Shown here: positions 1,202 through 4,200 of the stretch, piece by piece
Position numbering within the stretch: the stretch's first letter is position 1
How the letters are laid out: each line of letters starts with the position of its first letter
Source of the DNA: a virus
Lineage: Duplodnaviria > Heunggongvirae > Uroviricota > Caudoviricetes
Direction: 5' to 3' (one strand)
IMG/VR virus record: IMGVR_UViG_2711768059_000006
Length of the DNA: 4,387 nucleotides
The notes under the pieces: model-generated
Databases searched by the model: none
What the model was told of the DNA's origin: nothing
What the model saw: only the letters and a program-made list of their open reading frames with translations
Made by a program: the position numbers and the translations under genes

Positions 1202-4200
1202 TCAGCTGATACTGATACCTGCTGTGGATTTCTTCATCACCACAACCAGCAGATCGCTGATACTGGTTGTTGGTGTCCAGTTATTCGCTCCTGATGAAGA
1301 TACGGTGAATGTCAGTGTCAGTGTCCCCTGTCCGGCAGGCATATCTATAACTGAGGAAAATACGCCCTGAGCATCCGTCGTGGACTGATTAAAAATCTCC
1401 TGACCATTGCGGGTCACTCTTAACCGGCAGGTTGAATACCAGTATGACTGTTGGTTATTACTGTTGAAATTCTCATGCTTACCACCGCGGAATAACACTG
1501 GAGGTATCATGACCTGCCGGTCAAACTTCTGATCATCACTGATTCTTACCGTGATGGTGCCGCTGGCATAAGTGCTCGTGCGGGGGAAAGACTTGCTGAC
1601 CGTTTTGACAATATCGCCTTCAATCTGGTTGGCTGACAGTTTCCCCTTAATCTGACAGTTCTCATTAATCGTGACGTTGTTGAGCGTCCCTGAGTTCGCA
1701 TTCACACTGCCACTGATATCCGCATTTTTAGCGGTCAGCTTTCCGTCTGATGTCAGGGAAAATACCGGAGGACTGCCACCGCTGGTAATGGTGGGGGCCG
1801 TCAGGCGTTTCAGGAACACGTCGTTCATGAATATCTGGTTGCCCTGCGCCACAAACATCGGCGTTTCATTCCCGTTTGCCGGGTCAATAAACGCGATACG
1901 ATTGGCGGCAACCAGAAACTGGCTCAGTTTGCCTTCCTCTGTATCCTCCATGCTGAGGCCAAGCCCCGCGACATAATGCTTACCGTCTTCGGTCTGCTCA
2001 ATTTTGACGCCCCACATGGCATTCCATTTATCGTTGGCGTCTTTCCACTCTTTCGAAAACTCATCCAGTCTGCTGGCGTTATCCTCCGTCAGGTCGACTT
2101 TTTCCAGCAGCTCTTTACCGAGATGGGATTCGGTTATATGGCCTTTGAAAAAATCCAGGTAACCTTCCGCATCATCGCTCGCCCGACCGACGGCTTCCAC
2201 GAATGCCGATTTGCCAACGGTGTTCACACTGCGAACGTAAAAATAATAATCATGGCCCGGCCTGATATTGATACTGGCAGCTATCCAGTACAGCGCCGTG
2301 CCAAGATAGCGGGCTGTGGTTTCAACCTGCCTGATATCCGCAATCCGTTTTTCCGAGAACCAGAACTCAAACTGTACCGTCGGGTCATAAACCGCAAGAT
2401 GTGGCGTGGCGGTTATCTGAAAATAGCCCGGTGTCAGCTCAATCCGCGACGGCGCTGCCGGTGCGGCAATCCGGAACGATACCGATGCCGGTTCGCCCTG
2501 CTGTCCCCACGCATTTACCGCCCGGACTGTCAGCCTGTAGTTCCCCAGCGCCAGCTGCCTGAAGCGGTATGTGGTTTCCGTCGTCCGGGCCGTGCTGACC
2601 AGCCGCTCACTGCCGTCATCCGCTGCCACGGTCAGGCGAAGCATAAAGCTCACCCCCTTCACCACCTTCGGCGTGTCCCAGCGCGCCAGCACCTGATATT
2701 CCCCGCTGTCTGCGGTGACTTCTGCGGTCAGGTGCTGCACCGCTGGCGGCGTGACACCATTCACCGTACCGCTCTGGTCGCCGTCAAAGTGCGCCCCGTT
2801 ATCCACGATGGCTTCTTTCTCCGGTACATGCTGCACGGCGGTGATGGCATACGTGCCGTCGTCGCTCTCACGGATACTCACGCAGCGGAACAGGCGCTGG
2901 CGCAGCGTCGGCAGTTTCAGCCCCCACACGCTGTATTCAGCAACACCGTCAGGAACCCAGTTCACTTTCACCTTCACGCCGTCGGTAACGGACTGAACCT
3001 CCACGCTGGCCGGATTGCCACTTCCGTCAACCAGGCTTATCAGCGTGGTGCCGGAGGATGGCAGCGTGATTTCACGGTCGAGCGTCAGCGTCCTGGTCCG
3101 GCTGTTCACCGCCAGCACGCGCCCACCGGTGCTGATACCGGCATAGTCATCATCGCAGATTTCAATAACATCACCCGGTACATGGCGAAGCCCTTCTGCG
3201 CCCACGCTGAAGTCCACGGTCTGCGTTTCCAGCAGTTCTGTTTTAATCAGCCACAGCCCGGCGCGGTGCGCCTGCCCCCGGCTGGTACAGCCAAAGGCAT
3301 CCATTTTCGTGACGTTACGACCGTAACGGAGAATGGCCTGCGTATCTTCAACCAGCTCTGTCGCCGTCTCCCAGCCGTTGTTCGGGTCAATCCAGTTCAC
3401 CTCAACGGCATTATGGCGGTCTTTCAGGGCGCTGAAGCTGTAGCGGAACAGCGCGCCATCATCCGGCATCACCACATTACTGCGGTTATAGGTCCACACC
3501 TTATCCGAGGGTCGGTCCTGCACGAACGTCAGCGTCTGTCCGTTCCATACCGGCATACAGCGCATCGCCGAGCAGAAATCGCTGAGCACATCCCATGCCT
3601 TACGCTGCGTGGTCAGGTACGCATTACAGGTGATGCGCGGCTCCGTGCCGCCAAAACCATTCGGTACCAACTGGTCGCAGTACTGGCCGATAACGTACAG
3701 CGCCCATTTATCCACATCTGCCGCACCAAGGCGTTTCCCCATGCCGTAGCGCGGATGGGTCAGCATATCCCACAGACACCAGGCCATGTTGTTGCTGTAT
3801 GCCGGTTTAAACGTTCCGTCCCAGATACCGCTGTATTGCCGCGTCTGCGGGTTATAGTTCGACGGCACCTGCAGAATACGCCCGCGAAGATGATAATTAC
3901 GGCTCACCTGCTGGCTGCCGAACTGTTCCGAATCCACCTGCACGCCGACCAGTGCCGTGTTCGGGTAGCACTGTTTCACATCGATGATTTCGGTGTATGA
4001 CGACCAGAGCGTTTTGTTCTGCAGCTGGTCTGTGGTGCTGTCCGGCGTCATCCTGCGCATCCGGATATTAAACGGGCGCGGCGGCAGGTTATCCACCACC
4101 ACCGAGGCCAGATACTGTGAAGTGGTTTTACCCTTAATGGTGATGTCTTTTTCCGTCACCCAGCCACCGTTACGTTGTATCTGAACCAGCAGGCGGACTT

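Follow-up and report, generated by a model that had tools for sequence, protein, structure and literature searches.

In phage lambda, the tip attachment protein J ends in an Ig-like receptor-binding domain (RBD; PDB 8XCJ, 8XCK, 8IYK) that binds LamB. Four loops at the bottom of this domain are inserted into LamB and, after binding, the three domains spread, a movement runs up the central straight fibre and the tip opens (Ge and Wang, PMC11101478). The corresponding Pfam family, PF12421 (Ig_GpJ_C), bears the name [quoted passage not shown]. Phage 434 carries an RBD of the same family that binds OmpC. OmpC dependence has also been reported for the Stx2a phage vB_EcoS_phi330 (PV189401), which lysed all of the 54 Keio outer-membrane mutants tested except the ompC deletion, and whose plaques on a K-12 ompC deletion mutant were restored by a chromosomal Plac-ompC (PMC12502783). 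GpJ A8 is a fusion of a natural J C-terminus to residues 1–964 of lambda J (Brodel et al., Nature 2024, PMC11338833); it was tested together with an LPS-recognising P2-type side fibre, on cells that lacked both lamB and ompC and carried ompC variants on a plasmid, and delivered DNA to about 90% of the cells with K-12 or EDL933 OmpC (PMC11338833).

The stretch of DNA analysed here (4,387 nucleotides of the IMG/VR record IMGVR_UViG_2711768059_000006, hereafter the window) carries a lambda-type J whose C-terminal part belongs, by sequence comparison, with the OmpC alleles of phi330 and A8. Positions 1205–1678 very probably encode a lambda-type J receptor-binding domain which binds the trimeric porin OmpC, not LamB, and which is an exchangeable cassette.

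The J gene and its neighbours in the window

All the genes recognisable in the window by ORF and Pfam analysis lie on the minus strand (Table 1), and the order J–lom–stf is the one found in lambda, 434, 2H10 and PapRG. J exits the window at its right end, at about lambda residue 72, so that the first 71 codons or so are outside. Six Pfam families (FNIII-A_GpJ, Phage-tail_3, Ig_J, Ig_J_second, Phage_Tail_Tip and Ig_GpJ_C) are all matched in the expected order with E < 1e-30, as in a lambda-type J. The protein is as long as in lambda, judging from the 1132-aa J of 2H10 and PapRG-06-3, two intact relatives. In an exact-protein lookup, the 1021-aa ORF gave no match; the best E. coli match of the whole window is PapRG-06-3, with 98.6% identity.

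Downstream of J, the Lom protein is identical to that of phage 434 at 193 of 199 positions (97%) and to that of lambda at 94 of 198 (47%), and on these figures the assignment of the window Lom to the lambda type was rejected. The N-terminal part of Stf shares 138 of 157 residues with lambda Stf. Both terminator-like hairpins of Table 1 have an annotated counterpart in phage 434.

Table 1. Coordinates of the features recognised in the window, listed from left to right.
Feature	Position	Strand	Basis
stf (side tail fibre), N-terminal 157 codons, runs off the window	1–471	minus	PF08400 phage_tail_N, E = 1e-73
Second terminator-like GC hairpin and T-run, just after lom	488–509	minus	434 terminator annotated at the same place
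lom (Ail/Lom outer-membrane beta-barrel), 434-type allele	536–1135	minus	PF06316, E = 1e-120
Terminator-like hairpin and T-run just 3' of J	1165–1184	minus	sequence; 434 terminator annotated at the equivalent place
J (tip attachment protein/central tail fibre), partial	1202–4387	minus	translation, alignment to lambda and 2H10 J, Pfam
J stop codon	1202–1204	minus	translation; last sense codon ends at 1205
J C-terminal receptor-binding domain	1205–1678	minus	exactly the last 158 codons; PF12421 Ig_GpJ_C, E = 4.9e-36
Divergent cassette at nucleotide level (about 400 nt) inside the RBD	1241–1643	minus	blastn breakpoints against 434 and lambda
Hairpin ANNWTP, predicted OmpC contact	1271–1288	minus	translation; PMC12502783
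Hairpin (phi330 E953–S962), predicted to project into the OmpC barrel	1445–1474	minus	translation; AlphaFold3 model in PMC12502783
Short loop TSTY (phi330 T918–Y921)	1568–1579	minus	translation, alignment
Anomalous patch, 25 window-specific substitutions	4227–4377	minus	comparison with the E. coli PapRG-06-3 prophage
In-frame TAG in J; Y (TAT) in lambda, 2H10 and PapRG	4313–4315	minus	translation, alignment
In-frame TAA in J; E (GAA) in lambda	4355–4357	minus	translation, alignment

The body of J is close to that of lambda (NC_001416), with 814 identities over the 850 columns 51–900 of a global alignment (95.8%). The earlier note had described about 860 residues nearly identical to lambda J before a divergent end; the near-identity holds, while the count is of about 903 J residues in the window ahead of the C-terminal domain, the first 50 or so of which fall in the stop-containing patch discussed below. 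After the motif NANSGTL (lambda residues 960–966), by contrast, only 71 of 154 aligned residues are identical to lambda (46%, over the last 159 residues and with three small gaps), the position and the size of the loosely lambda-like C-terminus being those originally proposed. The high identity to lambda J 967–1132 that would mark a LamB-type domain is therefore lacking at 46%. Such an abrupt fall from about 96% to about 46% within one ORF indicates a mosaic junction and not chance. The PF12421 match covers the last 124 residues of the ORF. In blastn comparisons of the DNA, the homology with lambda and 434 ends at position 1644, below which none is detectable to lambda, and this places the nucleotide breakpoint about 12 codons inside the interval 1205–1678.

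A 32-residue peptide of lambda J triggers the abortive-infection nuclease HepS of Gifsy-1 (PMC13043305). This peptide (lambda J 902–933, F924 included) is found unchanged in the window J, at about 1802–1897 on the minus strand, and, given this identity, a phage with the window J is predicted to be HepS-sensitive.

Receptor of the C-terminal domain

The domain is identical at all 159 positions to that of the phi330 J. The C-terminal DNA of the Eligo "GpJ A8" aligns to window positions 1202–1696 with 477 identities over 484 aligned bases; this DNA was taken from the supplement of the paper, and the 11 alignment gaps are single-base dropouts of the kind typical of machine-read PDF text. Moreover, 173 of the last 175 residues are identical to the chains named "A8 gpJ 713" in the PDB entries 9WCA and 9WCB, the second of which holds three "Outer membrane porin C" chains as well, a pairing known here from the co-occurrence of the chains in the entry. 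The near-identity over the last 159 residues or so thus identifies the domain as an allele of the A8/phi330 type and, taking together the knockout and rescue of phi330, the A8 chimera and these PDB entries, the receptor of the allele is known to be OmpC. The view that the specificity of this allele cannot be read from sequence is consequently outdated, since identity or near-identity to characterised OmpC alleles reveals it. The altered specificity put forward in the earlier note gains support from the identity with the OmpC-dependent phi330 domain; near-identity to a characterised J allele, which that note had named as contrary to its proposal, takes away the novelty of the allele and leaves the change of specificity standing. 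The allele, its receptor, the domain boundary and the structure are already in the literature or in the PDB, and the finding is correct and ordinary.

With A8 the window J shares the C-terminal allele, the receptor and the junction with a lambda-like body (at about lambda residue 964–966), the difference lying in the body, which in A8 is that of lambda J itself, joined to the domain by engineering, and in the window a naturally occurring lambda-like version with about 96% protein identity to lambda. With the lambda RBD the window domain has in common the PF12421 family, the length and the position, and presumably the trimeric Ig-like fold and the trigger mechanism, but the segments that separate the conserved FDRQ, DMPAG and GIS motifs are replaced, and the receptor is OmpC instead of LamB. 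The RBD of phage 434 lies between flanks almost identical to those of the window (94% for the J body and 94% for lom), but the two domains are identical at only 75 of 156 aligned positions (48%), far from the high identity expected of a 434-type C-terminus, and the 434 domain has 5 residues more and an extended first loop. The contact loops are not conserved between phi330 and 434 according to the phi330 authors (PMC12502783); this and the 48% identity make the window domain an OmpC-binding allele separate from that of 434. Another natural C-terminal J domain which, like the window allele, retargets lambda to OmpC is gpJ 1A2, but its sequence is different (ending in KKATAGITIS), it aligns poorly at the DNA level, and its range of OmpC variants is narrower, being restricted to OmpC of the EDL933 type.

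The conservation of family, length and the three motifs might also be taken to mean that the domain is a diverged allele still binding LamB, its sequence having drifted as in phage 21 or HK97 with respect to lambda. This reading is scarcely credible, given that phi330, whose domain is identical, plated on every Keio outer-membrane mutant other than the ompC deletion, that A8 is functional in cells lacking lamB, where delivery varies with the OmpC variant supplied, and that 9WCB pairs the domain with OmpC. OmpC dependence could in principle come, instead of from J, from the side tail fibres, as an stf gene lies downstream in the window and the Stf of Ur-lambda is reported to bind OmpC. Yet in the A8 experiments stf was deleted, its place being taken by the lambda-P2 LPS-recognising fibre, and OmpC was still required; the stf region of phi330 is annotated in fragments, and in 9WCB it is a gpJ fragment, not Stf, that is found with OmpC. 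An origin of the dependence in the side fibres is accordingly judged extremely improbable, and the J domain alone is sufficient to confer OmpC specificity.

As regards the loops of the OmpC-binding domain, the hairpins for which contacts with OmpC have been proposed in phi330 (Table 1), on the basis of AlphaFold3 predictions (PMC12502783), are both identical in the window, in phi330 and in the A8 chain. Within the domain, the only two residues differing from A8, 2H10 and PapRG are in the short loop that reads TSTY in the window, as it does in phi330, and TNSY in the others; with 2H10 and PapRG the identity is of 157 residues out of 159. The AlphaFold3 model of the phi330 authors places no OmpC contact in this loop (PMC12502783).

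By analogy with lambda and LamB, the receptor-binding domain is an Ig-like module that would trimerise at the tip of the central fibre, and its bottom loops may insert into the porin or grip it. Binding to OmpC would then spread the three domains, and a twist passing up the fibre could open the tail tip. As the fibre region of the window J is nearly identical to that of lambda, the same trigger is presumed, with OmpC replacing LamB.

The stop-containing patch at the right end

The reading frame of J is interrupted near the right end of the window by two in-frame stops, a TAA and a TAG (Table 1), 14 codons apart. Toward the window edge the frame reads EGL, stop, ALGSEKVSGKEVK, stop, DTP. Genuine stops would mean that J is not made at full length. 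The patch around them contains, compared with the PapRG-06-3 prophage, 21 transversions and 4 transitions and no indels; 19 of the 25 changes are non-synonymous, two of the changes give the stops, and C>A and T>G, as read on the coding strand, dominate. The other 34 differences between the two J genes are of a different kind, with 24 transitions and 10 transversions, 24 of them being synonymous and 10 non-synonymous, and between positions 2300 and 4200 there is 1 mismatch to the intact prophage J. An exact search for a 40-mer of the patch in genome, viral and metagenome contig collections found it in none of them. The patch is probably low-quality sequence at the contig end, as argued by its confinement to about 150 nt, the lack of indels, the richness in transversions, the mostly non-synonymous nature of the changes and the absence of the 40-mer.

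Other origins of the patch were considered. The preponderance of C>A and T>G, with no specificity for adenine, led to the rejection of targeted mutagenesis of the DGR type. A mosaic segment derived from another J allele was likewise rejected as unlikely, the best match among 5,426 E. coli genomes and 50,697 phage records being of 85–87%; the mostly non-synonymous transversions and the two stops also speak against it.

The stops themselves, in a patch where most changes alter the protein, could mean that the window J is a dead gene in a decaying prophage, and that its OmpC-type domain is a relic which is not expressed and could serve at best as a donor in recombination. Defective lambdoid prophages are indeed common in E. 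coli, with a median of 2 J-like places per genome and up to 17. Decay of the gene is nevertheless rather doubtful, because the damage is limited to the extreme right of the window, beside some 1,900 nt that are essentially those of an intact prophage J, and because the lack of indels, the bias toward transversions, opposite to that of the rest of J, and the missing 40-mer fit low quality at a contig end better than decay. The window's own copy would be expected to behave like the phi330 and A8 alleles, which also requires that the two upstream stops are sequencing errors. Little probability is given to a different outcome, in which the change between TSTY and TNSY might shift the range of OmpC variants and so define a distinct sub-allele, or in which the patch is genuine and the OmpC cassette, itself intact, is kept only as recombination stock.

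Exchange, distribution and use of the cassette

Both flanks of the divergent cassette are about 94% identical to phage 434 by blastn. The block replaced with respect to lambda is longer, extending from the J RBD through most of lom (about 664–1643). Phi330, a Pankowvirus Stx phage, shares with the window the identical domain, TSTY included, and the 434-type lom downstream; over the stretch comprising the end of J and lom the DNA identity is 92%, while in the J backbone, which in the window is lambda/2H10-like, it falls to 77.6% (blastn). In 2H10 and PapRG, the window-type domain sits on a lambda-like backbone. The presence of the same domain and lom on different J backbones indicates that homologous recombination in conserved flanking sequence has transferred the cassette, the flanks being the central-straight-fibre part of J and, on the opposite side, the 3' end of J together with lom. 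The earlier description of this arrangement as ordinary lambdoid mosaicism, and not a new mechanism, is borne out. In the phi330 record, the side-fibre region 3' of lom (6208–7791) consists of three short ORFs annotated as "tail fiber protein", "hypothetical" and "tail fiber protein", which suggests either a fragmented stf or frameshift errors of the record.

When the 474-nt domain was used as a query, 99 phage records were matched, 44 of them with at least 95% identity; the latter are mostly long-tailed Stx1a- and Stx2a-converting phages, together with 2H10, CP-1639, YYZ-2008 and PhiR30_1. The set of complete E. coli genomes, which comprises 5,426 of them, contains 397 records with a match to the domain at 99% identity or more and 1,123 at 95–99% (about 1,500 in total). 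The window-type allele is also carried by some of the PhiR/ECOR temperate phages.

For annotation, a J with a C-terminus of this kind can be labelled "OmpC-binding (A8/phi330 type)" in place of "host specificity protein, receptor unknown". Such a label is useful for the prediction of host range in long-tailed Stx phages and for the choice of the tail tip in engineered lambda particles.
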